Assembly (NCBI GenBank): GCA_963692865.2
Contig: OY843592.1
Coordinates: 2,080,001 to 2,144,000 of the forward strand
Reading direction: 5' to 3'
DNA: 64,000 bases
DNA from: a bacterium
GTDB lineage: Bacteria > UBA8248
Position numbers and translations under genes: made by a program. Numbering within the stretch: position 1 is the stretch's first letter; each line of letters begins with the position of its first letter. Of this stretch, positions 15,881 to 50,670 are shown piece after piece. Below the pieces are notes generated by a model that was given only the letters and a program-made list of their open reading frames with translations, was not told the origin of the DNA and searched no databases.

Positions 15881-16873
15881 TCAGCTTCCCGCTTTCGCCT
15901 TGCGCCACAGGTTCCCGACGCGACGTCCGCGCATGAGACCGAAGCGAAAAAGGAGATAGCCCGGCGCGCCGAACCAAAGTCCCTGGGCCTCGCCGCCCAA
16001 AGCCGCGTTCATCATATCCGCAACGAGGCTACCAAGCCAGAAGGAAACCACCAGGATCGCCGCCTCCTCGGCGGCGCGCCCGAGATTTCTGGCGAATTGC
16101 CTTTGTCTGGCCCGAAAGGCGTCGCGCTCCGCCTTGACGCCGACGATCATGGGCGCGAGTCCGCGCCGCCATCCGTGGGATATCACCATGAGGAAATGGC
16201 CGATCATGAAGACGACGAGGAACAGCATCACCAGAAAATGGAGGAACCTGCTCGACTGATAACCCCCGAAAAGCCATGTCAACCACCCGAACTGGACGGG
16301 TTTCAGGATGGCGAGGCCCGTCAGGACGGTGAGCACGCCCGCCAGTACGACGACGTTGTACGCAATTTTTTGAATCGGGTTGAACTTCCCCTCTCCGGGG
16401 GAACGGTGAAAGGTCTTGATCGGGTGAAGGAGCATCTCCTTCGCGCCGGCGAAATCCGCTTTCTTAATCCGGTAGTGCCTCCCTTCTTCCGTCAGGAGGA
16501 GCAGGAGCAGGAAGATCAATCCGTTGATGGTGTAGGGCCACATGAGGGCGAAGTGCCAGCGCAGCGCGCCCGCGAGCCACCTTCCGATGCCGAAGGTCTT
16601 CGTGAGGCCCTGGACGAACACCCTGTAATCGGCGCCCAGGTTGACGGCGCGCGGGTCGGCCTGGGTTTCCGTCCCCCGCAGCGCTTCGAAGATGGCCTCG
16701 GGGTTGGGCCTGTCCGGCCCGAACGCGGGGTAGGCCCACCATATCTGAAGCCCGCTCGCCATCATCAGGAGCAGGAGGGGGACGTTCAGCCAATGGGTGA
16801 TCCTTAAGAGCGATGAATAGGGATATGCGGGGGCGTCCGGGGTTTTCGGGGTCGTTTCTTCGGTTTCCATCAT
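15881..16873 (-). CDS. Di-haem cytochrome b (Ni-hydrogenase cytochrome b-like), partner of the molybdoenzyme
   Basis: LRITHWLN, MASGLQIW, LRWHFALMW, FNPIQKIAY, KPVQFGWL, RFLHF...GH. Confidence 0.88.
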   Translation of the reverse strand: MMETEETTPKTPDAPAYPYSSLLRITHWLNVPLLLLMMASGLQIWWAYPAFGPDRPNPEAIFEALRGTETQADPRAVNLGADYRVFVQGLTKTFGIGRWLAGALRWHFALMWPYTINGLIFLLLLLLTEEGRHYRIKKADFAGAKEMLLHPIKTFHRSPGEGKFNPIQKIAYNVVVLAGVLTVLTGLAILKPVQFGWLTWLFGGYQSSRFLHFLVMLFLVVFMIGHFLMVISHGWRRGLAPMIVGVKAERDAFRARQRQFARNLGRAAEEAAILVVSFWLGSLVADMMNAALGGEAQGLWFGAPGYLLFRFGLMRGRRVGNLWRKAKAGS

Positions 16874-17391
16874 TCGGCGAGCAGCTTCATGATCATCGCT
16901 TCGGTGCGCTCGTGATTGCCCTCGCCGATCGTCTTGAAGCGTACGACGCCCTTCTTGTCGATCAGGTATTTCGTGGGCCAGAAGCGGTTTTCATAGGCTT
17001 TCCAGTTGGTGAAGTCGTTGTCCATCACGACGCGGTATTTGATGCCGAGCTTGGCCATGGCGTCTGCGACGTTCTCTTTTTTCCTGTCGAAGTTGAACTC
17101 GGGCGCATGGTTCCCGATGACGACCAGCCCCTTCTCCTCATAGCGCTCGTGCCACGAACGCAGCGTGGGGATCTCCCGCACGCAATTGATTCAGGCGAAC
17201 GTCCACATGTCGAGGAGAACGACCTTGCCGCGCAGGTCGGCGAGTTTCACGGGTTCGCCGCCCAGCCAGGGACCGCCCTTGAACTCGGGCGCCTGCGCGC
17301 CGGGTCCGAGGCCCGATGCGCCCGCCTGGTAAAACGTCCAGAAAACGGCGAGAAGGGCGACGGCGATGATGCAGGTGAGGGTTCGCTTCAT
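16870..17391 (-). CDS. DipZ/TlpA-like thioredoxin, probable selenoprotein (UxxC), 173 aa
   Basis: Two track ORFs join in frame across TGA 17191-17193: LRGKVVLLDMWTFA-U-INCVREIP...GNHAPEF...NRFWPTKYLIDKKG; SECIS-like hairpin at 17163-17183. Confidence 0.88.
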
Positions 17392-17457
17392 CGTGATCTC
17401 CTGGGAACAAGACGGCCTGAGAACACTTTAGGAGAAGGTTTGAGCGGATGCAAATAC

Positions 17458-18182
17458 GGGGCTGTTGAAAAAGGCTTGGAGAGCGATTCTGGTTGTGTGC
17501 ACGCTTTTGAATTTCACTCCCCCCTTGAGGGGGCTGTTGAAAAACCCTCGTCTTCGATCCCCGCAACCCGCCGACGCCTCTTTCCTCATCCTGAGTAGGC
17601 GCGTAAGCTCCGTATCGAAGGATGGGGGAACGCATCTGACCAGCGGGACGCGAATTTCGCCCTTCGATACGCGGCTTCGCCGCTACTCAGGGTGAGGCGG
17701 AGCGGCGGGCTGCGCAGGGCGAGGAGGGGATGGCGCCGCATCGGACTTTTTCAACAACCCCTTGAGGGTCAGGCTTCCCGAGGGGAAAGCCCGACGAAGA
17801 GGCCGAGCCCTTGGGCGAAGGCCGATTCGGTGGGGGGTAAAACGCATTATGTCTCCATTCCGAATTCTACCCCCCACCAGTTCGCTTTCGGGCTTACGCC
17901 CTCAGCTCACTGTCGGTCTTCCCCGAGGGAGACCGACCCTCAAGGGGGGAGTGAATCTTGTATCCCCCGGTCGGCGACATGATGCTCCCGTAGGGACAGG
18001 CCTCAGTGCCTGTCCTGATTGCAATCATCCTGTAAAGGGACAACCACGGAGGGTTGTCCCTACACCGCGACTCCTCATTCATCGGACCTTTTCAACAACC
18101 CCCTCAAGGGGGGAGTGATTTTCTCTCTCGTCGGTCGAGTACATACGACAAGTCTGGAAACCAGGGGTTTTTCAACAGCCCC
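17458..18182. mobile_element. Nested MITE/REP composite
   Basis: Outer TIRs GGGGCTGTTGAAAAA...TTTTTCAACAGCCCC with ATAC duplication. Inner copy 17530-17761 with TTGA(G) duplication sits inside a TTCACTCCCCCCTTGAGGG...CCCTCAAGGGGGGAGTGAA palindrome. GTAG REP doublet at 17990-18063. Confidence 0.8.
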
Positions 18183-18253
18183 ATACTCCTATACGATGGG
18201 CGGAGAGATTCGCAGACCCCGAATTCATTTTTCGGTAAAGTTTCATCATCCGG

Positions 18254-18610
18254 ATGGAGAAGAGCGTGAAGCACTATCATTTCGAGGAGATGGAAGCGCA
18301 CGATACCGGCGAGCGGATTCAGCGGGTGGTGGCGGGCGAGAAGCTGACCGTGCTTCGCCAGACGATTCGCGCCGGCGTGGACATGTACAACCCCCATTCG
18401 CACCCGAACGAGCAGATGACGATCGTGCTGGAAGGCACGGCGAGGTTCGCTTGCGGGGGTAAAGAGGTGGTGCTCGGGCCGGGCGGCGTCGTGGTTTTTC
18501 CACCGAACCAGGAACACTCCACGCGCAACGCGGGCGATGGGCCGCTCGTTCTGGAGGAGATATTCACGCCGGGCGTCGAGAAGCTGAACGAACTCGCGCC
18601 CGAGGATTGA
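18254..18610 (+). CDS. Cupin-domain protein
   Basis: PHSHPNEQ and PPNQEH cupin motifs. Confidence 0.88.
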   Translation: MEKSVKHYHFEEMEAHDTGERIQRVVAGEKLTVLRQTIRAGVDMYNPHSHPNEQMTIVLEGTARFACGGKEVVLGPGGVVVFPPNQEHSTRNAGDGPLVLEEIFTPGVEKLNELAPED

Positions 18611-18628
18611 AGCGGGCCGGAGAGAGGC

Positions 18629-19435
18629 ATGAGCCGTCTGACGATTACGGGACTCAGGAAAAATTTCGACGACGTTTGCGCAATCGACAATCTCTCCTTG
18701 GCGCTGGAGGACCGGGAGTTCATGGTGCTCGTGGGGCCGACGGGCTGCGGGAAATCGACGCTCTTGCGCCTCATCGCCGGCGTGGAGGATGAAGACGGCG
18801 GCCACATCTACTTGGACGGGGTTCGTCTGAACGGCATCCCGCCCGGGCGGCGCGGGGTGCAGCTCGTTTTCCAGAGCTACGCCCTCTGGCCGCACATGCG
18901 GGTTTTCGACGAGAAGAAATACTCGAACCTGGGCTTCGCGCTCAAAATCAGGCGCTGGCTGCCGGGGGTGCTGAACGAGCGCGCCCAGGACGTAATGCGG
19001 CGTCTGGGGATCAGCAAAAAATGGTCCCGCCGCCGCCCGGACAGCCTGAGCGCGGGCCAGCAGCAAAAAGTCGCCATCGGCCGCGCCATCGCCATACCGC
19101 CGCAGGTCTTTCTCCTCGATGAACCCCTGGCGAACATCGATCCGGTGGCGAGGCTCGAGGTCCGAAAAGAACTGCGAAGAGTGCACGACGAGATCGGAGC
19201 GATCAGCCTGCTCGTCACGCATGATTTGACGGATGCCTTCCAGATTGCCGACAGGATCGCCGTGATGCGCGACGGCGCAATCGTTCAGGTCGATACGCCG
19301 GAGAACCTCATCAACCATCCGGTGGATTCGTTCGTCGAGAGTTTCTTCACGAGCGTGCGCCATGAAAGGCTGCTGCAGGAGTTTCGCGCGAGGCGAAGGG
19401 CCGGGAAGGCGGAGCCGACCCCCGATTCACCCTGA
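18629..19435 (+). CDS. ABC transporter ATP-binding protein (MalK-like, no C-terminal regulatory domain)
   Basis: GPTGCGKST, VFQSYALWPHM, LSAGQQQ, LLDEP, VTHD. Confidence 0.9.
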   Translation: MSRLTITGLRKNFDDVCAIDNLSLALEDREFMVLVGPTGCGKSTLLRLIAGVEDEDGGHIYLDGVRLNGIPPGRRGVQLVFQSYALWPHMRVFDEKKYSNLGFALKIRRWLPGVLNERAQDVMRRLGISKKWSRRRPDSLSAGQQQKVAIGRAIAIPPQVFLLDEPLANIDPVARLEVRKELRRVHDEIGAISLLVTHDLTDAFQIADRIAVMRDGAIVQVDTPENLINHPVDSFVESFFTSVRHERLLQEFRARRRAGKAEPTPDSP

Positions 19436-20260
19436 TTCGGGGTTTTCCAGAAAATCCCGCCATGCCGCCCAGTAGGCGGCGCCCCCCGTGTAATACGTGT
19501 CGTTGTGGCCCGCTCCCTGGATGGTGAAAAATCGCTTATGCCTTGATCCCGCCAATTCGAAGAGCCGCCGCCCTTGCGCGAAAGGCACGATGCCGTCCCT
19601 ATCCCCGTGCAGGATGAGGAGGGGCAATTTCACTTTCGGGAGCATGGCGGCGCTGTCGAATTTGGAGGAGATGATCCAGCTAACCGGCAGGAAGGGGAAC
19701 ATCTTCTTCCCCATGGCGAGGGTGCTCTCGAAGGGGCTTTCGAGAATCAGGCCGCGCGCTTTCTTTCCTTCCACGGCGAGTTTCGCCGCCACCGCCGCGC
19801 CGAGGGAGCGGCCGAAGAGAAAGATGCGCTCGGGCGGCACGCGCTCGACGAGCCAGGCGTAGGCGGCCCTGCCGTCGGCGTATAAGCCCTCCTCGCCCGG
19901 TCTGCCCTCGCTTTTCCCGTATCCCCTGTAGTCGAAGATGAAGACGCCCGCTCCCAGTTCTTTTTGAATGAGCGCGATGTTCTCCGCGCGGTGGGAGAGG
20001 TTGCCCGCGTTGCCGTGCGCCCACAGGAGCACCGGGCCGTCCGGGTCTTTGGGGGCGACGTGCCAGCCGTGCAGGCGCACGCCGTCGGCGGCGCTGAAGG
20101 AGACGTTTTCAAACATGACGCCGTAGTTTCTGGGCGTCACCTCGATTTCCCGGTAGGGATGATAGAGCAGGAAATTTTCTAATAGACCGAACATCCCCAT
20201 GACCATCAGCGCGCCTGCGCCGAGGAGCAGATAGCGGTGGAATTTTTGCGAGATTCGCAG
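19427..20260 (-). CDS. Alpha/beta hydrolase (ABHD13/BEM46-like)
   Basis: HGNAGN, FDYRGYGKSEG, GRSLG, HGDRD, GAGHND; start uncertain. Confidence 0.88.
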   Translation of the reverse strand: MRISQKFHRYLLLGAGALMVMGMFGLLENFLLYHPYREIEVTPRNYGVMFENVSFSAADGVRLHGWHVAPKDPDGPVLLWAHGNAGNLSHRAENIALIQKELGAGVFIFDYRGYGKSEGRPGEEGLYADGRAAYAWLVERVPPERIFLFGRSLGAAVAAKLAVEGKKARGLILESPFESTLAMGKKMFPFLPVSWIISSKFDSAAMLPKVKLPLLILHGDRDGIVPFAQGRRLFELAGSRHKRFFTIQGAGHNDTYYTGGAAYWAAWRDFLENPESG

Positions 20261-20270
20261 CGGCCCGGTC

Positions 20271-20687
20271 TCATCGAGGGGGTTGGGCGAGTTCCCGGTG
20301 CGCGGTCTTGATGCAGAGGTTCTGGATCGTCGTGACGCCCGCATCCTCCAGGCGTCGCGCGGAGGTGGGATGCGCGATGCCCTTTTGCATCCAGAAGGCG
20401 CGCGGGCGTTTTTCGATGGTTTCATCGACAAGAGCGGGTATCTCTTCAGAACGCCTGAAGACGTTCACGATGTCGACGCGCTCGCTCACCTCGCCCAGGC
20501 TCGGAAATGCCTTCTCTCCGAGGGCGGACTCGATTCCGGGGTTTATCGGAATGACGCGGTAGCCCGCCTCCTGCATATACGCGGCGATGCGGTGGCTCGT
20601 GCGCGCGGGATCGTCCGAAAGGCCGACAACGGCGATGGTTTCCGCCTCGGCGAGTATGGATGCGAGCTTCTCGTTATCGGGGTTCAT
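20271..20687 (-). CDS. CoA-binding protein (YccU-like)
   Basis: IAVVGLSDDPAR, VIPINP, VDIVNVFRRSE, WMQKGI. Confidence 0.9.
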   Translation of the reverse strand: MNPDNEKLASILAEAETIAVVGLSDDPARTSHRIAAYMQEAGYRVIPINPGIESALGEKAFPSLGEVSERVDIVNVFRRSEEIPALVDETIEKRPRAFWMQKGIAHPTSARRLEDAGVTTIQNLCIKTAHRELAQPPR

Positions 20688-20864
20688 TCGGGTAGTCTCC
20701 TCGGTTTTCGGCATGATACCACAGCTTTTTCGGGCGCATCAGGCGCTCGCGGGAACAGCGACTTGCCCTCGATGGAGCCTGCGTGTAAATCATCGGGGAG
20801 GGGAGAGGACGCGCCTCTCCCTGATTTCATCTTGAGATATTTCTCTTATCTGTGAGGACATGAG

Positions 20865-21548
20865 ATGTCGGATACGGCGATTGTCGAGATTTTCCACGAA
20901 TACCACTGACCCTGGGCGTACATGGCCGCGGCGCGGCTGGACAAAGTGATGCCCGAGTTCCGGGAAAAACTGCATCTCAAATGGCGCGCGTTTCCGCTGG
21001 AGGTCATCAACGACCGCCCGGCGCCGCGCCACATCGTGGACCAGGAATGGCCCCTGATAGCGGTGCAGGAGCCGCTCTCGCCGTGCAGGAGCTGGCCGCA
21101 CGAGGAATATCTGCGGACCACCATTCTGGCCTTTCAGGCCTACGCGAGCGCCTACGCGCAGGACCCCGAAAAGGCGCGCGTCTACGACCTCAGGATCAGG
21201 CGGGGTTTTTTCTACGAGGGAAGGCGCGTGGATGAGGACGCCGTGCTTTGCGAGATGGCCGATGAGGCGGGCCTCGACGCCTCCAGGGTGCGCGCGGATT
21301 TGGAATCAAGCGCATACGCGAAGGGCGTGATGGATGATTACAGAGAGGCCATGCGCTTAAGAGACGAAGAAGGAATGCCCATGACGAGCCCCACCCTCAT
21401 CTTTCCGAGCGGAGAAGCGGTCTTCAACCCGTATGCTTCGGATAAGACCATAGAAGGCGGTAAGCTCACCGAAGTGCACGCCCCGCCCGCCTACGGGGAG
21501 GCGGTGTACGCCGGCTACCGCGAGATTCTGGCCAGAGCGGCGAGGTGA
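20865..21548 (+). CDS. DsbA/FrnE-like thiol-disulfide oxidoreductase, probable selenoprotein (UPWA), 227 aa
   Basis: ATG 20865 after a GAGGA SD reads MSDTAIVEIFHEYH-U(20907-20909)-PWAYMAAARL in frame with track ORF 20922; WRAFPL and TSPTLIF motifs; hairpin at 20914-20954. Confidence 0.82.
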
Positions 21549-21755
21549 TGGGGGAGCACGCCTTGTATTCTCGACCCCGGTAATTTCTAGCACTATCCTG
21601 ACAGGTTTGCTTTTAATGGATGAACCTGAAGGATCGGCAATCCGGTCGGTTCTGGGCCGGAGGTCTTGTTGTTCGGTTTTGCAGGCTGGACGTATGGAAG
21701 CATGTGCGTGGCATTTTCAGGACGATGAGCTGTAATACCACTTTGCCCGAGTTTC

Positions 21756-21818
21756 TATTGACACTTTCACCATTTTTGTAATATAAAATTCACCAGAATT
21801 ATATTGACACTTTCACCA
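21756..21818 (+). repeat. Phased direct repeats overlapping the promoter of the AAA+/DUF4143 gene
   Basis: TATTGACACTTTCACCA at 21756 and 21802; core TTCACCA at 21766, 21789 and 21812 (23-bp period). Confidence 0.75.
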
Positions 21819-21851
21819 GGAACATGGGCGCATGAAAAGCATGAGGACGCA

Positions 21852-23123
21852 ATGATCCTGCCACGCCACCTGAGCGCCGAATTGCTGGACGCGCTGAGCT
21901 ATTCACGTGTGATCAACATCGTGGGGGCTCGTCAGGTGGGCAAGACGACGCTCGTTCGGGACATTCTCCAGCATGGAAGGTTCATTTCGCTCGACGATGA
22001 TGCGTTGTTGGAAGCAATCGAAGACGACCCATGGGGACAGTTGCAGCGGCTCGTCGGCGAACTGAAAGACGGGCCGCTGGTGATCGACGAGGCGCAACGC
22101 TCCGGGAAGCTGTCCCTGGCGATCAAGAGGATTGTCGATCTCGGGGATCAAATGGGGCAGTTTGTCCTCACGGGTTCCTCCAACATTTTCACGACGCTGC
22201 ACGTGGCCGATTCGCTTGCCGGCCGCATTTTGACGTTGAAGTTGTGGCCGATGACCGTGGCCGAAACGATGTCGCGCGGCCCGTCGAAGATACTGGATTG
22301 GGCGATCTCCAAATCGCCGGACTTGAACGATCTGCCGGCGCCGGAAACTGCGACGAGGGCGGATTATGTCGATCTCGTCCTGAGCGGTGGGTTTCCCGGA
22401 ATCCGGGACCTCGATAACAGGAGGCGGCAGAAGGTTTATTTCGATTACGTTGATACGGTGGTGGACCGCGATGTTTCCGACATCGTCCGCATCCGAAAAA
22501 GCGACGCCCTGCGGCGCTTACTTGACCAATTGGCAATTCGTACGGGTTCCGAGCTCAACATCTCGCTGCTTTGCAAACTTATCGGCGTGCAACGCAATAC
22601 CGTCGAACAGTACCTTGATGTGCTGATACGGCTTTCGCTGGTCGTCAAACTGGGCGCCTGGACATCCGGAGAAGCCCGCCGCGAGATCAAGAACGCAAAG
22701 TATCATTTCGCCGATACGGGGATAGCGGCGGCGCTTCGAAACTTGACGCCTCGGTCATTCGATCCCGATGCCGACCCCAAAGCGCTTGGCGGATTGCTCG
22801 AGAGCTTTGTTTTTTCCGAACTCTTGCGCTCCGCGCCGTATCAGGATAACGGTTTTCGTTTCTATCACTGGCGCGACCAACGGGGGCGGGAGGTCGATAT
22901 TCTTGCGGAGAGCGCAAACGACATGGCGGCCATCGAGGTAAAAGCGTCCTCCTCGGTGAGCCGTCAGGATTTCAGGCATTTGGAATGGTTTGCCGGCGAA
23001 GGTCCGGGGAAAACCCGGGAAGTGACCTCGATAGTTTTCTATTTCGGCGAAGAGAAGCTGGGTTTCGGCGAACGTCGATATGCCTTGCCGGTGAGTTGCT
23101 TGTGGGGGGCAACGCGGAAATGA
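21852..23123 (+). CDS. AAA+ ATPase (AAA_14) with DUF4143 domain
   Basis: GARQVGKTT, VIDEAQ, LTGSS, DSLAGR, GGFP, KYHFADTG, HWRDQRGREVD...IEVK. Confidence 0.92.
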   Translation: MILPRHLSAELLDALSYSRVINIVGARQVGKTTLVRDILQHGRFISLDDDALLEAIEDDPWGQLQRLVGELKDGPLVIDEAQRSGKLSLAIKRIVDLGDQMGQFVLTGSSNIFTTLHVADSLAGRILTLKLWPMTVAETMSRGPSKILDWAISKSPDLNDLPAPETATRADYVDLVLSGGFPGIRDLDNRRRQKVYFDYVDTVVDRDVSDIVRIRKSDALRRLLDQLAIRTGSELNISLLCKLIGVQRNTVEQYLDVLIRLSLVVKLGAWTSGEARREIKNAKYHFADTGIAAALRNLTPRSFDPDADPKALGGLLESFVFSELLRSAPYQDNGFRFYHWRDQRGREVDILAESANDMAAIEVKASSSVSRQDFRHLEWFAGEGPGKTREVTSIVFYFGEEKLGFGERRYALPVSCLWGATRK

Positions 23124-23187
23124 AACATTCGTTTCGGGAGATTCGGCGCATGCGCCGCCGCAGGTTGATGGCCGAAAACTTCCTTCG

Positions 23188-24012
23188 ATGAGGAGCGACA
23201 TGAACTACCGCCGTCTTGGCAGGACAGGGCTGGAAGTAAGCGAGATAGGCCTCGGCACTTCGCACAATTTCATGCACATGGCGAGCGGCGACCCCGCCCG
23301 GTGCGTCGAGATCGTCCGGGAATGCCTGGATTGCGGGATCAATTTCTTCGACACCGCGCCGATATACGGGGAATCCGAGCGGGTGCTGGGAGAGGCGCTG
23401 GCGGGCAGCCGCGAGAGAATCGTCCTCGCGACCAAGGTGTGGGAGTCGAGCGCCTCGGCGGCCCGCGCGAGCATCGAGCGATCCTTCCGCCACCTCCGCA
23501 CGGACGTGATAGACCTCTTGCAGATTCACAACATGGCGGGCTGGCGCGAGGTGACGCCCGCCATGCAGGCGTATCAAGAAGAGGGCAGAATCCGCCATCT
23601 GGGGATCACGGACAGAAGGCCGGAGAATTTCCCCGAACTCATCGAAGCCATGAAGACGGATGCGTACGACGCTATCCAGATTCCCTACTATCTGGGCGAG
23701 GTTGAGTGCCGCGAGGAGGTGCTGCCTATGGCGCGGGAGATGGACCTGGGCGTGATCGTCATGCGGCCTTTCAGCCATCTGAGAAGAGGCCTGCTCGACC
23801 CGAATGGCCCCGTCGCGCGCATGGAAGAGTTGAAAGCCTGCAGCGCCGCCACTCCCGGTCAGGCGCTTTTGAGGTATCTACTGGCGGACGAGCGCGTCTC
23901 CAGCGTCATCCCCGCCACGGGAAGGGCGGGCCGCATGAGCGAGAATGCGGCGGCCTCAGGCGGCGCGCTTCCCCCCGAAATCCGCGCGCGCCTGGAGGCG
24001 CTCGTGGGCTAG
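23188..24012 (+). CDS. Aldo/keto reductase
   Basis: YRRLGRTGLEVSEIGLG, FFDTAPIYG, LATKV, DLLQIH. Confidence 0.92.
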   Translation: MRSDMNYRRLGRTGLEVSEIGLGTSHNFMHMASGDPARCVEIVRECLDCGINFFDTAPIYGESERVLGEALAGSRERIVLATKVWESSASAARASIERSFRHLRTDVIDLLQIHNMAGWREVTPAMQAYQEEGRIRHLGITDRRPENFPELIEAMKTDAYDAIQIPYYLGEVECREEVLPMAREMDLGVIVMRPFSHLRRGLLDPNGPVARMEELKACSAATPGQALLRYLLADERVSSVIPATGRAGRMSENAAASGGALPPEIRARLEALVG

Positions 24013-24326: not shown

Positions 24327-24337
24327 GAAGGTCCTCC

Positions 24338-24652: not shown

Positions 24653-24710
24653 GGGGGATACTCCCTGTGTGATGGGTTTGGGTCGGATTATAGCACGAAC
24701 AAGGTTGATC

Positions 24711-40417: not shown

Positions 40418-40451
40418 AAAAAAACACCCTGCCCAAAGAGCAGGGTGTTTC
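40418..40451 (-). terminator. Intrinsic terminator downstream of the DsbA-like selenoprotein gene
   Basis: AAACACCCTGC-loop-GCAGGGTGTTT followed by a T run on the minus strand. Confidence 0.75.
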
Positions 40452-40490
40452 ATTTTTCCTGGTGAGTGAAAGAGCCACCTGATATTCGGC

Positions 40491-41123
40491 TTAACTCTCT
40501 TCTTTTTCCTTCTCGATGCGTTGTCGCTTCACGCGCGCAACCTCGTTCTTCACGTCGTCGATGACGTCTTTGCCCCAAAAGAGCTTTCCCTCCACCACGA
40601 ACGTGGGGATTCCGTAAATTCCCAACCCTTTTCCCTGGGCGCGCTGGCTGTGGAGTGCGCCGATGTAGCGTCCCTCGGCGATGACGGCCTTGATTTCCTC
40701 TCCGTCGAGTCCTACATCCTCACCGAGCCCGGCGATGACGTCCAAATCCTCGAGATTCAGGTCGTCCTCCCAGCGCGCCTTGTAGCAGCGATTCCGGAAT
40801 TCCTTGAACTTCCCCTTGTCCCGAGCGTAATAGGTGGCCATGTGGAGGTTGGTGGTGCGGTAATCGCCTCCCGCCACCCGGATGGGCACGTTGTATTTCT
40901 CGGCGAGAGGTTTATGGTTCGTTTCGTAACTTTCCTGTTTCTGCTCCGGCGAGTAGCCGGCGAACTCCTGGCCGGGGGGTCTCCCTTCCCAACTGACCCA
41001 CTCGACGACGACGTCGGGGTCTTCTTCTATTACGGGCGTGCCACCCACGGTGGCGACATAGCAAAATGGTCATGTGTAATCCGAGTATTTCACCACAACG
41101 ATTGGTTCTTTCAACTCACTCAT
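40491..41123 (-). CDS. DsbA/FrnE/HCCA-isomerase-like protein, probable selenoprotein (UPFC), 210 aa
   Basis: ATG 41123 after GGAGG reads MSELKEPIVVVKYSDYT-U(41070-41072)-PFCYVATVGG in frame with track ORF 40491..41048; GIYGIPTFVV...FWGKD; hairpin at 41038-41057. Confidence 0.9.
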
Positions 41124-41200
41124 GGCGTTGCCTCCGTCAGGTTTGCAATGAATCTCTTGAGAATACCGTTGAATATGTATCCAGGCAGCAACTTTTTGGT

Positions 41201-42637: not shown

Positions 42638-42868
42638 GATTTGGCGCGATTTCCTTATCTCCAGAACAAGAATATATACTGGTTTGTAGCAAAATTATGT
42701 GTTTTGCACACGCTTGTTCAAGTGGATGTCGCGTTTGCTCGTTTTTTCTTGTTTGCCGCCATGGTGGTTGTTACATTTTTCATGAGCGAAATAGAATCCT
42801 TTTGGGGTCATGGAATCAGAAAGTCGCCGGATTGAGCATTTATTTTCCGCCGTTTTTTGGTGTCTCAA

Positions 42869-43666
42869 ATGATAGTTTGTCCGCGGGATAAACATGTTCG
42901 TCTCATCTGTCAGCATGACCATGCCCGGGCCGCCGGTACGATTGCGCGAAATTGGACGGGTATCGAATCGCTTCCCTCTCCGCCGAATGAACTCAGAGAG
43001 AAAGTTTTGTTCGCCATCGACAACCACGACGTTGGATGGTGCCGCCCGGATGCTACCCCGAGATGGGATGAAATGACGAAACTGCCTTATAGTTTTTTCG
43101 GCATAACGGCGGACAAGGCGGTTGAAATATGGTCGGAAGGCATTGATTCCTGCGCGTCTTTTCATCCGTTTTCGGGTTGTCTTGTCAGCCTTCACTTCTC
43201 TTCGCTCGCCGCAGGAGGAAGGAGGGGCGCGCCATTTGAGGTGTCCAAGGTACTTAACGGGTTCATTCACGCTGAATCAAAAAGGCAGGAAAAGTTGGAC
43301 GCCCTCATCGAGCCGCGACACAAAGACGCGATTGAAAACTCCGTGTCTTTGCTCAGGGTTTGCGATACGTTGTCCCTGTTGGCATGTCGGGCGCCGGAAA
43401 TCACCCCGCCCGATGACGCCATCCATCCTTTGACGCAGAGTGGGTTGAACGTGAAAACCGCAAACACCGATGATCTGGAGATATCTCCATGGCCGTTCTC
43501 GGAGGATTCGATCGAGTTGCGGATGCCGGGGTTGGTCCTGCCGGGTGAGTATTTTGCGGATGAAAAAGAACTGGCTGAAGCGGTTCCTATGGCGGAACCC
43601 ATTGTATTTTCAAGCGTTCTTAGGCCGATTATCGGAGAGGCGGAAAACGAAGATGCGCGGAATTGA
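42869..43666 (+). CDS. DUF3891-like protein
   Basis: MIV...QHDHA, AIDNHDVGW, LVSLHF, CDTLSL, ISPWPF. Confidence 0.75.
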   Translation: MIVCPRDKHVRLICQHDHARAAGTIARNWTGIESLPSPPNELREKVLFAIDNHDVGWCRPDATPRWDEMTKLPYSFFGITADKAVEIWSEGIDSCASFHPFSGCLVSLHFSSLAAGGRRGAPFEVSKVLNGFIHAESKRQEKLDALIEPRHKDAIENSVSLLRVCDTLSLLACRAPEITPPDDAIHPLTQSGLNVKTANTDDLEISPWPFSEDSIELRMPGLVLPGEYFADEKELAEAVPMAEPIVFSSVLRPIIGEAENEDARN

Positions 43667-43681
43667 AATCTTGGAGACGGA

Positions 43682-45841
43682 ATGAAGAGCGAAGTCGCCG
43701 CTTTGGAGTTGAACGTCGCTGCGGGGATTGTCCGGCATGAGGGCCGCATTCTCATTTGTCAGCGCCCTGCGGGCGGTCACATGGCAGGTTTCTGGGAGTT
43801 TCCCGGTGGTAAAATAGAGGATGGGGAGACACCCCAGGAAGCCCTGCGCAGGGAAATTTACGAGGAGCTCGGGGTCGAAGTACGCGTGGGTCGTCTTCAT
43901 TGGGAGACCCGGCATCGGTATCCCGATAGAGACGTTCACCTGCGCTTTTATGATTGTGAATGGGAGAGCGGAGTGGCGAAGAATGAAGAGGTGGCCAAGC
44001 ACGAATGGGTTCATCCTTCCTCATTGGGAGATTTTGATTTCCTGCCTGCGGATGCGCGGTTGGTAGAATCTCTCATGAATGGCGAGGAAATACGGGATTC
44101 GGGTGAAGAGGCGAAATCCGTCTCGGAGGCTGATGTAAGCGCCGCTTACGATACCTGCATGAAAATCGTAGTTGGCCACTACGAAAATTTTCCCGTTGCT
44201 TCGAAGTTGTTGTCGGCGAAGATAAGGCCGCACGTCACTGCGGTATACGCTTTCGCCAGAGGCGCCGATGATATCGCGGATACGGCCGGGCCCGTCGATG
44301 AGCGCCTCGCACGTCTTGATGAATGGGAAGAAAAGCTCATTTTGGCCCACAAGGGAGTTGCGGAAACGGACGTTTTCATTGCGCTGTCCGACACGATTCA
44401 AAAATTCGATTTGCCTTTGCAGCCTTTTCGGAATCTGCTCTCGGCGTTCAAACAAGACGTCACGATTCTCCGGTATCCGAACTATGAAGCCTTGCTTGAT
44501 TACTGCCGCCGATCGGCGGATCCCGTCGGGCGAATCGTTCTCATGCTGCATGGGGTACGCGATGAAGAGGCCCTTCGCGCCTCGGACGCCATTTGCACGG
44601 CCTTGCAGATTGCGAATCACTTACAAGACGTGAAAGAAGACGCCGAGCGGGGCATCGTCTACATGCCGCAGGATGAGATGAAACGATTCGCCGTTTCCGA
44701 GGATGATTTGCTTGCAGATGTGGCGACGCCTCAATTGCGCGCGTTCCTGGTCTTTCAGATAAAGAGGACAAAGCATCTCTTCAGGCAGGGCCTGCCTCTT
44801 TTGTACCGCACCCGTGGCGCATTGGGACGTGAACTTCGTGCGATTTGGCGCGGAGGCGTCGCGGCGCTTGACGCAATTTCCCGTGCGGAATGGAACGTCT
44901 GCGCGGGTTCGCCGCTTTTGAATGGTTGGGATAAAGCCAGGTCGTTGTTCGCGGCGTTTCGCCCGGTCTATCGGCTCGAATCCAACGTGGACCTACATGC
45001 GGAGGAGGAGTTGGAGCGCGCCTATTGTCGCTGGTTCATTCGCGCGAGCCGGTCGAATTTTTATCTCTCTTTTTTCAGTCTGCCTGCGGAGAAAAGGCGC
45101 GCCATCATGGCGGTTTACGCGTATTGCCGCATGGCCGACGACATCGCCGATGAGCCGGGCGAGATATCCGGCAAAAAAACTTCGTTGCGCGAATGGAAAG
45201 AGGCGTTAAATCAATTGAGCGATGAGGGCCCACCTCACCCGATAATTGGAGAGCTTGCGCGGGCGGCGCGAAAATACGACTTGCCGCAGGAGTATTTCCG
45301 GGCGATTTGCGACGGCGTGGCGATGGATTTGGAAGAGAGGCGATTTGAAGATTTTGCCGAACTGGAAAATTACTGTGACAAAGTGGCTTCAGCGGTGGGG
45401 TTGGCGTGCCTTGGCATCTTTGAGGCGAAATCCGAATTTGCGAAAGACTACGCCGTTTGTTTGGGAAGAGCACTTCAGATGACGAACATTTTGAGAGACG
45501 TTTGGGAGGATGCTGAACAAGGGCGTATTTATATTCCGCGAAGTGAAATGGAGAAATATGGCGTAACGGCCTCCGATTTAAGAGACAAAAAAGATACTTC
45601 CCAAGTCTTGAGTCTTCTTGGGTTTGTGGCGCATCGCGCACGAGGATATTACGAGGGAGCGAATGAAGCCTTGCGCCATGAGGCAAAAGAGAACCTTCTT
45701 CCGGCGAGAATTATGGGCCGAATCTACAAAAGGCTTCTAAGTGAAATGGATGGGAATCAATTTCGACACATGGATTATCGCCCCTCTTTGAAGTCCAAGG
45801 ATAAACTGCAAGAAGCGCTTCGCTGTTTTCTGGAATCATAA
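43682..45841 (+). CDS. hpnCD: Fusion of MutT-like Nudix hydrolase, HpnC (hydroxysqualene synthase) and HpnD (presqualene diphosphate synthase)
   Basis: Nudix box WEFPGGKIEDGETPQEALRREIYEELG; HpnC HYENFPVAS/ADDIAD/YCRRSADPVGR/LQDVKED; HpnD SNFY/ADDIAD/LQMTNILRDV. Confidence 0.88.
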   Translation: MKSEVAALELNVAAGIVRHEGRILICQRPAGGHMAGFWEFPGGKIEDGETPQEALRREIYEELGVEVRVGRLHWETRHRYPDRDVHLRFYDCEWESGVAKNEEVAKHEWVHPSSLGDFDFLPADARLVESLMNGEEIRDSGEEAKSVSEADVSAAYDTCMKIVVGHYENFPVASKLLSAKIRPHVTAVYAFARGADDIADTAGPVDERLARLDEWEEKLILAHKGVAETDVFIALSDTIQKFDLPLQPFRNLLSAFKQDVTILRYPNYEALLDYCRRSADPVGRIVLMLHGVRDEEALRASDAICTALQIANHLQDVKEDAERGIVYMPQDEMKRFAVSEDDLLADVATPQLRAFLVFQIKRTKHLFRQGLPLLYRTRGALGRELRAIWRGGVAALDAISRAEWNVCAGSPLLNGWDKARSLFAAFRPVYRLESNVDLHAEEELERAYCRWFIRASRSNFYLSFFSLPAEKRRAIMAVYAYCRMADDIADEPGEISGKKTSLREWKEALNQLSDEGPPHPIIGELARAARKYDLPQEYFRAICDGVAMDLEERRFEDFAELENYCDKVASAVGLACLGIFEAKSEFAKDYAVCLGRALQMTNILRDVWEDAEQGRIYIPRSEMEKYGVTASDLRDKKDTSQVLSLLGFVAHRARGYYEGANEALRHEAKENLLPARIMGRIYKRLLSEMDGNQFRHMDYRPSLKSKDKLQEALRCFLES

Positions 45842-47197
45842 ATGTCTGAGCCTGGCGGATCCGAACGGCCGGTCATCATTATCGGAGCTGGCGCAGCGGG
45901 CCTGTCTGCTGCCTTACGCCTTGCCGAGTCGGGTATCAAGGTTGTGGTTCTCGAAGCGGGGAAGTTGCTCGGAGGCCGGGCTCGTAGTTTCATGCACCCT
46001 TCAACGGGTTTGGAGTTGGACTGGGGCCCACATTTGTTTATGGCGGCCAACCCGGCATTGCGTTCATTGTTGGAAAGGGTGGACGCCGCCGATGATGTTT
46101 TTTTCTCTCCTTCTCTGGAGGTCAGTTACCGTATTCGGAAAGCGGGGTCGGCCAGACAGACGCAATTGTCGTTTCCAGAGACCGGAGGGGTTTTTGCGCA
46201 ACTCCGGGGTTTGCTCAAATGGCAAGGTCCCCGCCTTTGGGAGAAAGTAAATCTTCTGAAAGGTCTTTCTGGGATTATTTCGAAATCGAGTGATGGGAAT
46301 CCGAATGAATCTATGGATGAAATGCTCAAGCGTCTTGGCCAGAGAGGTGAGGCGGTGCGCTGGTTTTGGGAGCCGTTTGCGCGCGCGGTGTTGAACTTGC
46401 CCCTGGAGCAGGGAAGTGCGGAACTGTTCAAGGCGGTGATTCGGGAAGCCTTTGCCCATGGGCCGAAAGGGGCCGCCTTGGGGGTGCCGATGAAGGCTTT
46501 GGGTGCATTATGGGCGAACCGGGCGGCTCAACGCATCCGGCACCTTGGCGGAGAGGTGAGACTTCAACAGCCTGCACTTGGTTTTGATGTCAAAAATTCA
46601 AAAATAAGCGGCGTGATGCTGAAAGAACGCGAGACCTTGTATGCTGCCGCAGTCATTTCCGCTGTGCCGCCCGACGCACTTGGCAGACTGCTGGGTGGAG
46701 AACTCGGTGAAGAGGCGCCTTTTTCGAGTCTGGGAAAATTGCGCCCTGGGCCTATCGCCAGCGCGTATTGCTGGCTTGAGGAACCGGATGAGGGACCTCC
46801 TTTCGAAGCGATTGTAAACGAGGAATGGGATTGGCTGTTTCGCCCGGAAGTCGGTAGAAAAGGCGTGAGAAACCTGGTGTGTCTGTTGGCCGGGGCGGAG
46901 GATTCCATCGCATCCGCGAAGAGGGCGACCATCGAGTCGTCTGCCGGAGATTGCCTGAAACGCATGATTCCCCTTAACCGTATTCGGGATATATTGGTAG
47001 TGCGGGAGCGCGCCGCGACCTGGGCGAACGGAGTGGCGGAGCAAAATTACCGGATAGATACGAAAACTCCGATAGAGGGCTTTTTTCTGGCAGGAGACTG
47101 GACTCGCACGGGTTTGCCGGCCACTGTAGAGGGTGCGGTGAGAAGCGGGGAAAATGCTGCACAGGCGGTTTTAGAGTATACCGAGGCCAGCTTGTAG
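45842..47197 (+). CDS. hpnE: Hydroxysqualene dehydroxylase
   Basis: IIGAGAAGL, GGRARSF, LAGDWTRTGLPATVEGAVRSG; directly follows hpnCD. Confidence 0.85.
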   Translation: MSEPGGSERPVIIIGAGAAGLSAALRLAESGIKVVVLEAGKLLGGRARSFMHPSTGLELDWGPHLFMAANPALRSLLERVDAADDVFFSPSLEVSYRIRKAGSARQTQLSFPETGGVFAQLRGLLKWQGPRLWEKVNLLKGLSGIISKSSDGNPNESMDEMLKRLGQRGEAVRWFWEPFARAVLNLPLEQGSAELFKAVIREAFAHGPKGAALGVPMKALGALWANRAAQRIRHLGGEVRLQQPALGFDVKNSKISGVMLKERETLYAAAVISAVPPDALGRLLGGELGEEAPFSSLGKLRPGPIASAYCWLEEPDEGPPFEAIVNEEWDWLFRPEVGRKGVRNLVCLLAGAEDSIASAKRATIESSAGDCLKRMIPLNRIRDILVVRERAATWANGVAEQNYRIDTKTPIEGFFLAGDWTRTGLPATVEGAVRSGENAAQAVLEYTEASL

Positions 47198-47235
47198 CTT
47201 TTACCCGATGAGATGTACGGTGATAGGGAGGAAAG

Positions 47236-47442
47236 TTATTCTTCTTGTTTGGTTACATTCGCCGCCTGAAGTCCTTTGGGACCTTGGGTGATCTCGAATG
47301 TGACCTTTTCACCTTCTTTCAGTGATTTGAATCCATCCGCAACGATGGCTGAGAAGTGAACGAAGATGTCGTCGCCATCTTCCCGTGAAATGAAGCCATA
47401 CCCCTTTTTGTCGCTAAACCACTTTACTGTTCCTTCTGGCAC
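47236..47442 (-). CDS. cspA: Cold-shock protein
   Basis: [31 protein letters not shown]. Confidence 0.95.
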
Positions 47443-47604
47443 CTACAATCCTCCCGCGCGAGACCCTGAATAAGGTTGAGGGCGAAGCCTCAACCCGCCT
47501 GGACACCTTGATTCACGGGGAAATGCCTACTCTCCTAAGTTAAACAAAAGAGATATTAGATAAGATGCGTTGTTGAGAGGTTTGTGTCAAGAAAAAAATT
47601 TTCA

Positions 47605-49230
47605 TTATTCCGCGCGAACGTCTTTTGAAGCCACATAGCCGTCAGGATTGATGACGGCGTCGATGACCCAGGGTTTGTCGGATGCAAATGCGTGTCCCAG
47701 CGACTTTCTCAATTCCTCTTCGGAAGTAACCCTTTCTCCCTCGCAACCCAAGCCTTTCGCTACGGATGCGTAATCGGAATCGCGAAATTCAGTGCCTAGG
47801 CGCGGGAAAGAGCGGTTGTCTTGTTTGATTTTGATCAGATTCAGATAGCGATCGTTGAATACAACGGTGACGAACGGGATATCTTCTCGAACGGCGACTT
47901 CCATGTCGCCGATTCGCATGAGAAAACCACCATCCCCGGTAAGGCAAACAACGGGCGTATCCGGTTCGGTTAATTTGGCAGCCATGGCGGCTGGGGTGGC
48001 GACGGCCATCGAACCCAGCCCGCTGGAGGTCAAGTAACCAAGAGGACGTCTCGTCTCCCAGATGTCGTTGGCCAGGACTTTGTGGCTTCCCGCGTCCGCG
48101 GTCATGATGCCGTTATCGGGGAGGCATTCCCGTGCAATCCGAATCACGGCGCCGGGCATCAGGCCCTCTCCGGTAGGGAACAATGCGGATTGCCTCATTT
48201 TCTTATAGGAATCCATCTCCTCGGTGTTCCAGGCATGGTTGGCTGAGACGGAGGCGCTCAATTCCCTGAGGATGTCTGCGAGATTGGAGACGACTTCGAC
48301 TTCCGGTCGAATCAAGTCATCAAGGTGCGGCACTTCGTCCAGGTTGATTACCCGTTGGGGGTAGTCCCAATGTCCGGGAGCGAATACTTCTACCGTATCA
48401 AAGCCCACCAGAATGAAAAGGTCCGATTTGTCTATCAACTCCCGTTCTGATGGGGCGCCTCGGAAGGTGCCCATGGCGAGGGGATGTTGTTCCGGCAGCA
48501 CACCCTTCGCCGAGGGTGCGGCGAGAACGGGCGCCCCGAGTTTCTCCGCAAAAGAGACGAATTCTCTTTCCGCCTCTCGTCCCGAACGGTTCACCTGAAG
48601 ACCTGCTATCACTACCGGGTTGTTCGACTCCGAGATAGCGTCGAGTGCCGCGCGAATGCCCGGATGGGCTGACCCGATGCGTCCGATGAATTTTTGGAGT
48701 TTCTCGCCGGGCGGAAAATCGTCTTCTCCGGCGCTCGCCAGCATGACGTCGTAGGGGAGGTCCACGTGTACGGGCCCCGGTCTTCCTTCCATTGCCAGAG
48801 CCAGCGCCCGCCGGATGGCGACCGCCGCGTTATCCTTCGCGAGCTTGAAGGTGCCTTTGGTGATGGGGCGAAACAACCGGTTCTGGTCGAGTCTTTGCCT
48901 GCCCTGGCGGCGAAATTGCTCGTCGGAGAAGCGGTCGGTCAATATGAGGCATGGGGCGCGTTCGAGGAAATTGTTCGCCACACCGTGGAGGACGGCGGCC
49001 GCCCCGGGGCCGACCCCCGTACTCACGACTCCCGGCCGCCCCGTCATGATGCCGTACGTTCCCGCCTTCACGGCCGCGCTGCTCTCGTTGCTGCAGAGGA
49101 TGTAGCGTACGCCGCGCTTTCTCGCGGCTTCGATGAGCTCGACGGAACTCAAGCTTCCGGGCACTCCAAAGATGAATTCGATGCCCGCGTCTTGAAGAAC
49201 GTCCGCCACCACATCGGCATACGTCGACAT
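47605..49230 (-). CDS. Thiamine-diphosphate-dependent enzyme (acetolactate synthase-like)
   Basis: FGVPG, NESSA, GVGPG, GRPGPVHVDLP, GDGG...ND. Confidence 0.9.
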   Translation of the reverse strand: MSTYADVVADVLQDAGIEFIFGVPGSLSSVELIEAARKRGVRYILCSNESSAAVKAGTYGIMTGRPGVVSTGVGPGAAAVLHGVANNFLERAPCLILTDRFSDEQFRRQGRQRLDQNRLFRPITKGTFKLAKDNAAVAIRRALALAMEGRPGPVHVDLPYDVMLASAGEDDFPPGEKLQKFIGRIGSAHPGIRAALDAISESNNPVVIAGLQVNRSGREAEREFVSFAEKLGAPVLAAPSAKGVLPEQHPLAMGTFRGAPSERELIDKSDLFILVGFDTVEVFAPGHWDYPQRVINLDEVPHLDDLIRPEVEVVSNLADILRELSASVSANHAWNTEEMDSYKKMRQSALFPTGEGLMPGAVIRIARECLPDNGIMTADAGSHKVLANDIWETRRPLGYLTSSGLGSMAVATPAAMAAKLTEPDTPVVCLTGDGGFLMRIGDMEVAVREDIPFVTVVFNDRYLNLIKIKQDNRSFPRLGTEFRDSDYASVAKGLGCEGERVTSEEELRKSLGHAFASDKPWVIDAVINPDGYVASKDVRAE

Positions 49231-49335
49231 TCGATCCCTCCCGGCATGCGCGAATTGTGGATAAGTCCGAATGATAATACCATAATTCAGTGGCGGTACC
49301 AGGAGACGGGCGACTATGAATGAAGGAGCGCCATT

Positions 49336-50181
49336 TTGTCGTTGAGTGACTCGCAATTAGAGGCCGTCTGTCATTTGTTGAGTGATGGTTCACCGGGTGT
49401 GACGACGGCATTGGACCGCCAGGTTTCCGGATTCTCGACCGACGAGCAGCTAAGACTTCTGGACATGATGAAGAAACGTGTGGCGAATAATGAGGTGGTA
49501 TTGCCGTCATCGCTGCTGGAATTCCATTACAATCAAATCGAAATCGCTTTTTCGGACTGGTCTCTTTCCCCGGTAGAAGATGCGGACCTGGAAGATGCGT
49601 GTTTCTTGTTGGCGTCCTTCGGCCATCCGCTCGAAGACATGGAGATGAAAAAAAACGAACTGCTGGGCATGGAAAATGATTTGCGTGACCGTTTGGAGGG
49701 CTTGAGCCAGGCTGATGCCATGGTCGATGAAGTCGTGGAATACCTGCACGGAGAGCTTCGCTTCGATGGCGCTCGCAATAATTACTATGATGCGCAGAAC
49801 AGCTTTATGAATCGTGTGCTGGAACGCAGGCGGGGCATTCCCATATCGCTTTCCGCTTTGTATTTGATTCTTGGCGAACGACTGGACCTTCCCTTTCACG
49901 GAGTCGGGATGCCGGGCCACTTTATCGTCAAATACCAGGGTGATGAGAAACCCATTTTTTTGGACCCTTTCGAGAGGGGAAAACGCCTGAGCGTGGGGGA
50001 TTGTGCGGCGATTGTGCGTGGGCTCGGGTATCATTTCGACATGCGGTTTTTACAGGAAACCCCTCCTCGCCGCATCGTGGAGAGAATGATCAATAATCTG
50101 CTTGGGATTTATAAGCGTGATGGGGAAGATGAAAAGGTAACCTGCCTGCTTCGGTGTCGGGAACTGGCGCAGCGGGTGTAA
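49336..50181 (+). CDS. SirB1/transglutaminase-like (Transglut_core2) protein
   Basis: NYYDAQNS, RRGIPISLS, GVGMPGHF, LDPF, RMINNL. Confidence 0.88.
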   Translation: MSLSDSQLEAVCHLLSDGSPGVTTALDRQVSGFSTDEQLRLLDMMKKRVANNEVVLPSSLLEFHYNQIEIAFSDWSLSPVEDADLEDACFLLASFGHPLEDMEMKKNELLGMENDLRDRLEGLSQADAMVDEVVEYLHGELRFDGARNNYYDAQNSFMNRVLERRRGIPISLSALYLILGERLDLPFHGVGMPGHFIVKYQGDEKPIFLDPFERGKRLSVGDCAAIVRGLGYHFDMRFLQETPPRRIVERMINNLLGIYKRDGEDEKVTCLLRCRELAQRV

Positions 50182-50205
50182 AGACTACCAAAGAGGAAAA
50201 AGCGC

Positions 50206-50670
50206 ATGGAATACTTCGAACTGGCCGAAAATCTCGTGTTCGGCAGACAACCGGGCCGCAAGGATATGGAGGCTTTGGCGGACAAGGGGATAAGAACCCT
50301 GGTGAATGTTCGTATGGCTGATGAAGAAGAGCCGGAATTGCCGCCCGATGCAGAGAGAGAAGCGGCGTATGAGTTGGGTATGAACTTCGTGCATATTCCC
50401 GTGAACGCTGCCTCTATGAACGATGCATTGTCGCGAGAAATTCATGAAGCGCTACGTGAGGCCAGGAAAGACGGCCCGGTGTACGTTCACTGAAAAGGCT
50501 TGGGGCGAGCCGGGATTTGCTCGCTGATTCATCTGGCCGAAGAAGAAGACCTGAACGGAGACGAAGTGCTGCAAAAAGCGCGCGACGTCGATTTCGATTG
50601 GGAGACTTCCTCTATTGCGGGGTATTTCGAAGATTTCGCGAACAACAGAAAGAAAACCGGCGCATCATAG
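50206..50670 (+). CDS. DUF442/phosphatase-fold sulfurtransferase-like protein, probable selenoprotein (H-U-x4-R), 154 aa
   Basis: GRQP, GIRTLVNVR, LGMNFVHIPV, GPVYVH-U(50491-50493)-KGLGRAG; frame stays open to TAG 50670; hairpin at 50504-50525. Confidence 0.82.

Follow-up and report, generated by a model that had tools for sequence, protein, structure and literature searches.

Four genes with probable selenocysteine-encoding UGA codons in a 64-kb stretch of a genome assigned to the UBA8248 lineage

Described selenoproteins and the four genes of the window

The recoding of UGA to selenocysteine (Sec; U in protein motifs) directed by a selenocysteine insertion sequence (SECIS) is textbook knowledge, and many families that use it are catalogued. 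A 2026 review (PMC13188914) tabulates 119 Sec families; the accessible part of its Table 1 includes DsbA-like form 1 (PF01323, UxxC), redoxin and thiol-disulfide isomerase-like proteins (TlpA-ResA-DipZ C-terminal, UxxC; PF08534, cd02966) and several forms of rhodanese. The Global Ocean Sampling (GOS) study lists the selenoprotein classes DsbA 2 and DsbA 3 (PMC2398784). In the available part of Table 2 of the 2026 paper PMC13326102, the database BSepDB counts 54, 50 and 48 selenoprotein genes in three UBA8248 'Nitrospinota' metagenome-assembled genomes (MAGs), which are among the ten richest bacteria, so that a large selenoproteome is, as far as this source goes, already known for the lineage. 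The stretch described here (the window) comprises 64,000 nucleotides, positions 2,080,001 to 2,144,000 of contig OY843592.1 of a bacterial genome, and contains four genes, A to D, each with an in-frame TGA codon that probably encodes Sec:

16873-17391, minus strand (stop TGA at 16870-16872): gene A, 173 aa, Sec at U67, motif F-A-U-I-N-C
20865-21545, plus strand (stop to 21548): gene B, 227 aa, Sec at U15, motif H-U-P-W-A
40494-41123, minus strand (feature 40491-41123): gene C, 210 aa, Sec at U18, motif T-U-P-F-C
50206-50667, plus strand (feature 50206-50670): gene D, 154 aa, Sec at U96, P-loop H-U-K-G-L-G-R-A-G-I-C

A and C each represent an ordinary case of a catalogued Sec family, and B is a motif variant. 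D, a protein with the fold of protein tyrosine phosphatases (PTPs), and a CoA-transferase gene outside the window look like uncatalogued Sec families. With the Sec richness of the lineage already in print, the findings mostly confirm known biology and a failure of annotation. What they add is a worked case of four active sites lost by ordinary gene calling, a UxxA variant of the DsbA fold and two candidate Sec families.

The nearest named relatives of the genome are MAGs labelled Nitrospinota or Nitrospinaceae. From these labels, and from the single class of the phylum in the genome sample, we infer that the genome belongs to the GTDB lineage UBA8248.

Probable Sec codons and downstream hairpins

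The first-pass annotation of the window had placed in-frame TGAs at 17191-17193(-), 20907-20909(+), 41070-41072(-) and 50491-50493(+), each at the catalytic Cys of its family, in a frame open on both sides and followed by a hairpin. Read from the window sequence, the four codons were present at these positions, and each gene, when the TGA is read through, extends without interruption from its start codon to a stop further downstream. The codon-usage log-likelihood was above zero both upstream and downstream of the TGA in A, B, C and D. Alignment to relatives of solved structure (DipZ 2hyx, FrnE 5cnw and the DUF442 protein 2f46) bore out the catalytic-Cys position of each TGA. The hairpins, which are rich in G+C, were found as well; the loop starts 16 nt downstream of the UGA in A, 20 nt in B, 21 nt in C and 17 nt in D. 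Taken with the conservation, the machinery and the RNA-level constraint described below, all four in-frame TGAs are most probably Sec codons recoded through SelB and the hairpin, with an estimated probability of about 0.93.

The codon was followed in relatives by six-frame searches with each protein across 61 to 81 related genomes, in which stop codons were counted, and the codon at the Sec column was read from alignments in 95 loci (first set) and 75 more distant loci, with one extra locus, a paralogue of B. In the first set, TGA stood at the Sec column in 25/25 loci for A, B and C each and in 20/20 for D. In the more distant set, it was found in 15/15 loci for A, 17/17 for B (one being the paralogue), 20/20 for C and 20/20 for D. 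All orthologue loci fetched from the same class kept the TGA (A, 40/40; B, 41/41; C, 45/45; D, 40/40).

The depth of conservation differed between the genes. For A, all 40 matches of at least 52% identity, from genus, family and class, carried one TGA, and the next four, from other phyla at 41 to 52% identity, carried none; the codon there was TGC in all four loci. One TGA was present in 41 of 41 full-length matches of at least 46% identity for B, and for C in 41 matches of at least 61% identity and in 9 at 36 to 41%; five C matches at 25 to 29% had none. Among the matches listed for D, an in-frame TGA was carried by 57 of 59, even at 36% protein identity; one of the other two was a partial match with TAA and one a weak stop-free match in another phylum. 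D was found in 36 of 81 genomes, including 22/22 of the genus and 34/41 of the family. Outside the family, its Sec form was absent from all 9 remaining genomes of the class and from all 30 genomes sampled from other phyla, which gave a single weak match without a stop. A paralogue of D in the same genome as the window (C1:268585-269028, 39% identity) also has a TGA. Homologues lacking Cys at the aligned column had been named beforehand as a ground for rejecting the Sec assignment; more distant homologues were found to have Cys there. As judged from the alignments, TGA in orthologues and Cys in distant homologues is the classical Cys/Sec signature.

If the TGAs were nonsense mutations or assembly errors, the genes would be pseudogenes or encode truncated proteins. 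This would agree with the public databases, where D was found only in short form: in a collection of 5.8 billion proteins, 25 of 25 close relatives were products of 84 to 95 aa ending at or before the TGA. The single name given by the sources, to one of these fragments, was 'sulfur transferase domain-containing protein'. Against this stand the presence of TGA at one shared alignment position in 40 to 45 loci per gene from different genomes, with identity down to 36 to 52% and both flanks conserved, and the fact that the domain models span the TGA. Since many independently assembled genomes share the TGA, sequencing error and pseudogenes were excluded, and this explanation of the four codons is hardly credible. 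The short products fit the claim of the first-pass annotation that standard gene callers fragment Sec genes. The simple open reading frame (ORF) caller used in this analysis also cut all four genes, dividing A into pieces of 66 and 103 aa, leaving B and C without their N-termini and active sites and ending D at 95 aa.

The genome was searched for the Sec machinery, whose absence would have spoken against recoding. A tRNA-Sec (selC) with anticodon UCA, selA, selB and selD were all present; selB lies about 2.7 kb from selA, and selD itself contains an in-frame TGA. A second, identical tRNA-Sec copy is located on the small contig C4. Contigs C2 to C8 repeat stretches of contig C1 almost exactly, including this second tRNA-Sec and several matches of the genome scan described below. 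The repeats are probably assembly redundancy, which fits the estimated contamination of 6.7% (genome of 4.15 Mb in 8 contigs; completeness 97%).

The ordinary terminal stops of A (16870-16872) and B (21546-21548) are TGA too, so that the codon is read in two ways inside one gene, indicating that the decoding of UGA is context-dependent. The candidate elements that may provide this context are the following:

17163-17183, minus strand: hairpin 1 of A, loop AGAU, 16 nt after UGA; stem sequence varies between clades
17144-17160, minus strand: hairpin 2 of A, loop GGC, 37 nt after UGA; 7 pairs, well conserved in the family, one compensatory pair
20923-20938, plus strand: SECIS-like hairpin of B, loop GGC, 20 nt after UGA
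41040-41054, minus strand: SECIS-like hairpin of C, GCCACC-GUG-GGUGGC, loop 21 nt after UGA
50504-50525, plus strand: SECIS-like hairpin of D, 7 pairs, loop CGGGAUUU, 17 nt after UGA

In the bSECISearch description of bacterial SECIS elements, the apical loop lies 16 to 37 nt downstream of the UGA and has a G early in the loop. The hairpins of A, B, C and D all have this geometry. A hairpin starting 10 to 18 nt after the UGA would bind SelB carrying Sec-tRNA(Sec), and the ribosome would then insert Sec at the UGA rather than terminate.

The z-scores of the 60-nt folds were -2.3 for A, -0.5 for B, +0.2 for C and -0.6 for D. Among out-of-frame TGAs inside genes (n = 2341), 16% folded at least as well as A, 5% as B, 38% as C and 17% as D. 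Because the single-sequence z-scores of B, C and D were not significant, fold energy alone was not used as evidence. Taken as a set, 45 genomic Sec sites gave better folds than either control group, the 2341 out-of-frame TGAs (P = 4e-4) or 1115 true TGA stops (P = 2e-10).

Constraint on the RNA was measured as codon entropy at conserved, degenerate amino acid columns, each hairpin being set against the remainder of its own gene over one set of sequences. The entropy was 0.38 in the hairpin and 1.22 in the rest for B (P = 0.0004), 0.81 and 1.21 for C (P = 0.036) and 0.35 and 1.27 for D (P = 0.00025). The synonymous sites in the B, C and D hairpins are thus frozen, which is a constraint at the RNA level. 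In B, the five consensus pairs were all kept in 39 of 39 sequences, and one G-C pair was replaced by U-A, a compensatory change, in five class-level sequences through an Ala-to-Ser change together with a synonymous Arg change. The wobble bases of the C stem were fixed, whereas the loop wobble took all four bases. The D hairpin was near-invariant over 36 to 100% protein identity, with one pair occurring as A-U or G-U (20 to 18). In distant paralogues of C (36 to 41% identity), single folds placed other hairpins at the same position. A MAFFT alignment of C with these paralogues was discarded, its gaps having dissolved the consensus hairpin.

Read-through by a near-cognate or suppressor tRNA carrying Cys or Trp, or a general reassignment of TGA, would also keep the four frames open. 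Sec and another inserted residue are told apart here by sequence only, and in an orthologue of D (L035, G010:C5:285631-286089) another in-frame TGA coincides with the otherwise invariant Trp132 codon, where it might reflect an error, a truncated allele or read-through. General reassignment was rejected in view of the use of TGA as a true stop, since it ends 1115 pseudo-annotated ORFs longer than 600 nt on C1 as well as genes A and B. The homologues have Cys, not Trp or Gly, at the Sec column, the full Sec machinery is present in the genome, and the hairpins lie at SECIS distance under RNA-level constraint. Read-through outside the Sec system is therefore regarded as very improbable for these genes, and decoding as Sec as the preferred reading.

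Several points weigh against decoding as Sec. The assignment draws on comparison of sequences, and SelB binding, the actual incorporation of selenium and the function of the proteins encoded by A to D are predictions of the same kind. The genomes in which TGA conservation was counted are kin and hence non-independent samples. The energies of the single hairpins lie inside the range of random TGAs in this genome of 61% G+C. In A, two candidate hairpins compete and the synonymous test had 2 usable columns (P = 0.12). The arms of the D hairpin encode the invariant residues GRAG and CSL and a double compensatory change was not found, indicating that the nucleotide conservation in D is partly driven by the protein. 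An Rfam scan of the window at the gathering score returned two tRNAs only and no SECIS family at any of the four hairpins.

Proteins encoded by genes A to D

A matched the Pfam families AhpC-TSA (59 bits) and Redoxin (49.7 bits; cut-off, 26.6); all its NCBIfam matches were far under their cut-offs. U67 aligned with the first Cys of the 'SCINC' CxxC motif of Mycobacterium tuberculosis DipZ (2hyx; E = 5e-41) and was conserved in 40/40 sequences, and C70 in 39/40. With a domain score over the cut-off and a UxxC motif, A belongs to the redoxin selenoproteins (PF08534), which it resembles in both the AhpC-TSA/Redoxin domains and the motif. Some of its Cys homologues in other phyla lie in open frames of 545 to 571 aa, whereas A is a stand-alone protein of 173 aa. 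The signal-like N-terminus marks A as a predicted secreted or membrane-anchored DipZ-C/ResA-like redoxin, which would act as a UxxC thiol-disulfide reductase bearing a signal peptide.

The genes downstream of A may form an operon with it:

14784-17391, minus strand: possible operon of A, a cytochrome b561 gene (15884-16873), a 96-aa ORF and a gene with a molybdopterin oxidoreductase domain (14784-15524), in this order

The stop TGA of A overlaps the ATG of the cytochrome b561 gene (ATGA), so that the two genes are translationally coupled. No family was assigned to the 96-aa ORF. The signal-like N-terminus of A and the cytochrome b561 and molybdopterin oxidoreductase neighbours suggest that A heads an envelope redox operon and may take part in a redox relay of the cell envelope.

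B and C both matched the Pfam family DSBA (51.8 and 94.2 bits, respectively; cut-off, 25.6), and U15 of B and U18 of C both aligned with the first Cys of 'CPWC' in FrnE (5cnw). In C, the Sec and the Cys at +3 were invariant in 45/45 sequences (UPFC), which is the UxxC motif of DsbA-like form 1, and C would be a FrnE-type UxxC oxidoreductase. In contrast, all 41 orthologue loci of B had Ala at +3 (UPWA). B is like form 1 in the domain and the position of the Sec only and, without the Cys at +3, is a variant and not a member of that form. Its nearest printed analogue is the GOS class 'DsbA 3, UxxV' (PMC2398784). No NCBIfam model matched B. Its other Cys residues were partly conserved (37/42 and 30/42), and a single-Sec protein of the DsbA fold with UxxA would probably act by forming a mixed selenenylsulfide, either with a small thiol or with a partner. 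The motif of another DsbA-like Sec gene (L220, G000:C1:2147472-2148173), 3.5 kb past the window end, is V-U-P-Y-A, like that of B, and two more such genes were found at C1:2434892-2435521 and C1:2638204-2638926.

D matched the Pfam family BLH_phosphatase (DUF442, PF04273) with 35.5 bits (cut-off, 26.1), and several DSP-PTPase families were close behind. An AlphaFold (AF2) model built with 26 family members in the alignment had a predicted local distance difference test score (pLDDT) of 92.7. Its best fold matches were the DUF442 proteins 3gxh and 2f46 (template modelling (TM) score, 0.73), followed by small PTPs and dual-specificity phosphatases, and U96 aligned with the P-loop Cys of 2f46. 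The residues U96, R101, A102, G103, C105, S106 and L107 were invariant. A profile search of 1.84 billion representatives gave 6963 relatives of D (E of 1e-3 or better). When 24 full-length relatives were aligned, 22 had Cys at the Sec column, including a protein of 162 aa that is 44% identical to D. Compared with this family of Cys homologues of about 150 aa, which have the motif H-C-x-x-G-x-R-A-G, D has Sec for Cys and in addition an invariant Cys at +9.

The P-loop of classical PTPs and dual-specificity phosphatases is C-x5-R(S/T). The loop of D, U-K-G-L-G-R-A, has four residues between U and R and an Ala after R (U-x4-R); D thus lacks the classical loop and combines a PTP-like fold with a nucleophile loop of the C-x4-R type. 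In its fold and the position of its P-loop, D is like the DUF442/TIGR01244 proteins (2f46, 3gxh and the N-terminal domain of the sulfur transferase/dioxygenase Blh, NF040641). In NCBIfam, D and its paralogue resembled the TIGR01244 sulfur transferases and the Blh sulfur-transferase domain, each under the curated cut-off. For TIGR01244, D scored 47.6 bits against a cut-off of 85.85, which makes a sulfur-transferase function an analogy. No Sec-specific NCBIfam model matched A, B, C or D.

By this analogy, Sec as the P-loop nucleophile of D would carry a selenopersulfide (Se-S) or related chalcogen intermediate, with the invariant C105, nine residues downstream of U96, as a possible resolving partner. 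The chance that D is such a selenopersulfide-carrying sulfur (or selenium) transferase was put at about even. Rhodanese-like selenoproteins (PF00581), of which the accessible part of Table 1 of PMC13188914 has several forms, are analogous in the replacement of a loop Cys by Sec in a small sulfur-transfer domain. Their fold is unrelated to the PTP fold of D, and two rhodanese Sec genes are present in the same genome (L230 and L232).

Alternatively, D may belong to the PTP superfamily as a Sec-dependent enzyme, either a phosphatase or an arsenate-type reductase. Its fold matches include true PTPs and dual-specificity phosphatases with TM scores of 0.7 to 0.78 (Tk-PTP 5z5b, VHR and TpbA), and the Pfam DSP-PTPase families scored nearly as high as BLH_phosphatase. 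Arsenate reductases of another fold are known selenoproteins and are listed in the available part of Table 1 of PMC13188914. The best sequence and fold matches of D are nevertheless 2f46, 3gxh and the Blh sulfur-transferase domain, and its P-loop is U-x4-R as in 2f46, not C-x5-R. A phosphatase or reductase function of D was therefore considered unlikely, though by no means negligible, and a role as a sulfur or selenium carrier is preferred. A transglutaminase-like gene lies directly upstream of D in 20 of 20 genus-level loci, which is weak evidence at such divergence.

The evidence tilts slightly in favour of D and its paralogue being a natural selenoprotein family that uses Sec as the P-loop nucleophile of a PTP-fold protein and occurs in one UBA8248 family only. 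The accessible part of the table of 119 families in PMC13188914 has no entry for PF04273, TIGR01244, DUF442, a phosphatase fold or a CoA-transferase. A literature search pairing selenocysteine with DUF442, TIGR01244 or tyrosine phosphatase found nothing, with BSepDB itself not queried and another name possible. If the family is real, the PTP superfamily has a natural selenium-using member, and a natural Sec in a PTP-type P-loop would offer chemists a native comparison of Cys and Sec nucleophiles in that fold.

Predicted selenoproteome of the genome

The first-pass annotation had concluded from the density of Sec genes in the window that the selenoproteome is unusually large. The genome was scanned for TGAs with a coding signal on both sides and for paralogue alignments (TGA against TGA or Cys), and 60 read-through candidates were compared with Pfam. 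A domain spanned the TGA in 34 of them, and 6 more were backed by paralogues or by a GRDB model ending at the Sec. Another 19 proved to be neighbouring genes that share a frame, for example HigB/HigA, NuoL/NuoM, LivG/LivF, TctA/TctC and DnaX/YbaB, and were rejected. In the remaining candidate (L252, G000:C1:1471679-1471933), an 85-aa DUF2442 ORF, the Pfam match covers a TGA at codon 32; this ORF may encode a selenoprotein or be a disrupted gene. The 40 accepted genes, A to D, the D paralogue and SelD give 46 Sec genes. Since the filter misses Sec codons near the gene start and genes with a weak coding signal, this number is a lower bound; the first filters had dropped SelD, whose Sec is too near the start, and the D paralogue, which is overlapped by an antisense ORF in the pseudo-annotation. 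The conservation of the TGA in relatives was checked for A to D, the D paralogue and the CoA-transferase only. The following families were represented:

CMD/AhpD-like: 11 Sec genes
UGSC: 6
GrdB: 1; GrdB-like: 3; GrdA: 1
Deiodinase-like: 3
Further DsbA-like: 3
AhpC/TSA: 2
Thioredoxin: 1; glutaredoxin: 2
ArsC: 1
Rhodanese: 2
Rdx/SelW-like: 1
DUF3179: 1; OsmC: 1
CoA-transferase: 1

With at least 46 candidate genes, the conclusion that the selenoproteome is unusually large holds. Four genes per 64 kb are not typical of the genome, being about five times the mean of 0.75 per 64 kb. The window together with L220 is the densest stretch, with five Sec genes within about 50 kb. Clustering beyond chance was rejected, as random placement of 46 genes gave a cluster of at least five in 19% of trials, and the local density needs no explanation.

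The count of at least 46 matches the 48 to 54 that the accessible part of PMC13326102 gives for the UBA8248 MAGs. According to the same part of that source, the BSepDB count was built on 111 known families, so that it would include D and the CoA-transferase only under a different name. In the CoA-transferase gene (PF01144; L243, G000:C1:3199283-3200029), codon 76, which lies within the domain, is an in-frame TGA. Among the matches listed, the TGA was kept in 26/26 of at least 64% identity, the copy of this genome included, and homologues of 55% identity or less had no stop. Among the papers listed by a search of the literature, none dealt with a Sec-containing CoA-transferase by its title. If the D family and the Sec CoA-transferase are real, the homology-based counts of 48 to 54 still underestimate the selenoproteome of this lineage and are lower bounds.

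A Sec-type formate dehydrogenase was not found in the genome, where the matches had no stop codon. A full-length GrdB with Sec at codon 350 (L216, G000:C1:3117963-3119276) and a GrdA with Sec at codon 44 (L234, 3122474-3122929) lie about 3 kb apart and, with three shorter Sec genes like the C-terminal part of GrdB (L213 to L215), make up a glycine/betaine-reductase-type system. L226 (G000:C1:3621842-3622591) is a frame of 250 aa that joins a glutaredoxin domain, whose Sec is at codon 12, to a DinB_2 domain.

Parts of the stretch occur in sequencing runs labelled 'sponge metagenome'. One of them contained 27% of the sampled words and contigs of about 95% identity over the C and D sites, and the others contained small shares, which is only a hint that the organism is associated with sponges. 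Contigs from four public runs span the C and D sites; two of these runs match the window exactly and may be where it came from. No RNA run was listed as containing the sequence. The window also contains three tandem genes of the acetamidase/formamidase family (54939-57779, plus strand) and two dihydroxy-acid dehydratase paralogues (1897-3600 and 50741-52429, both on the minus strand).

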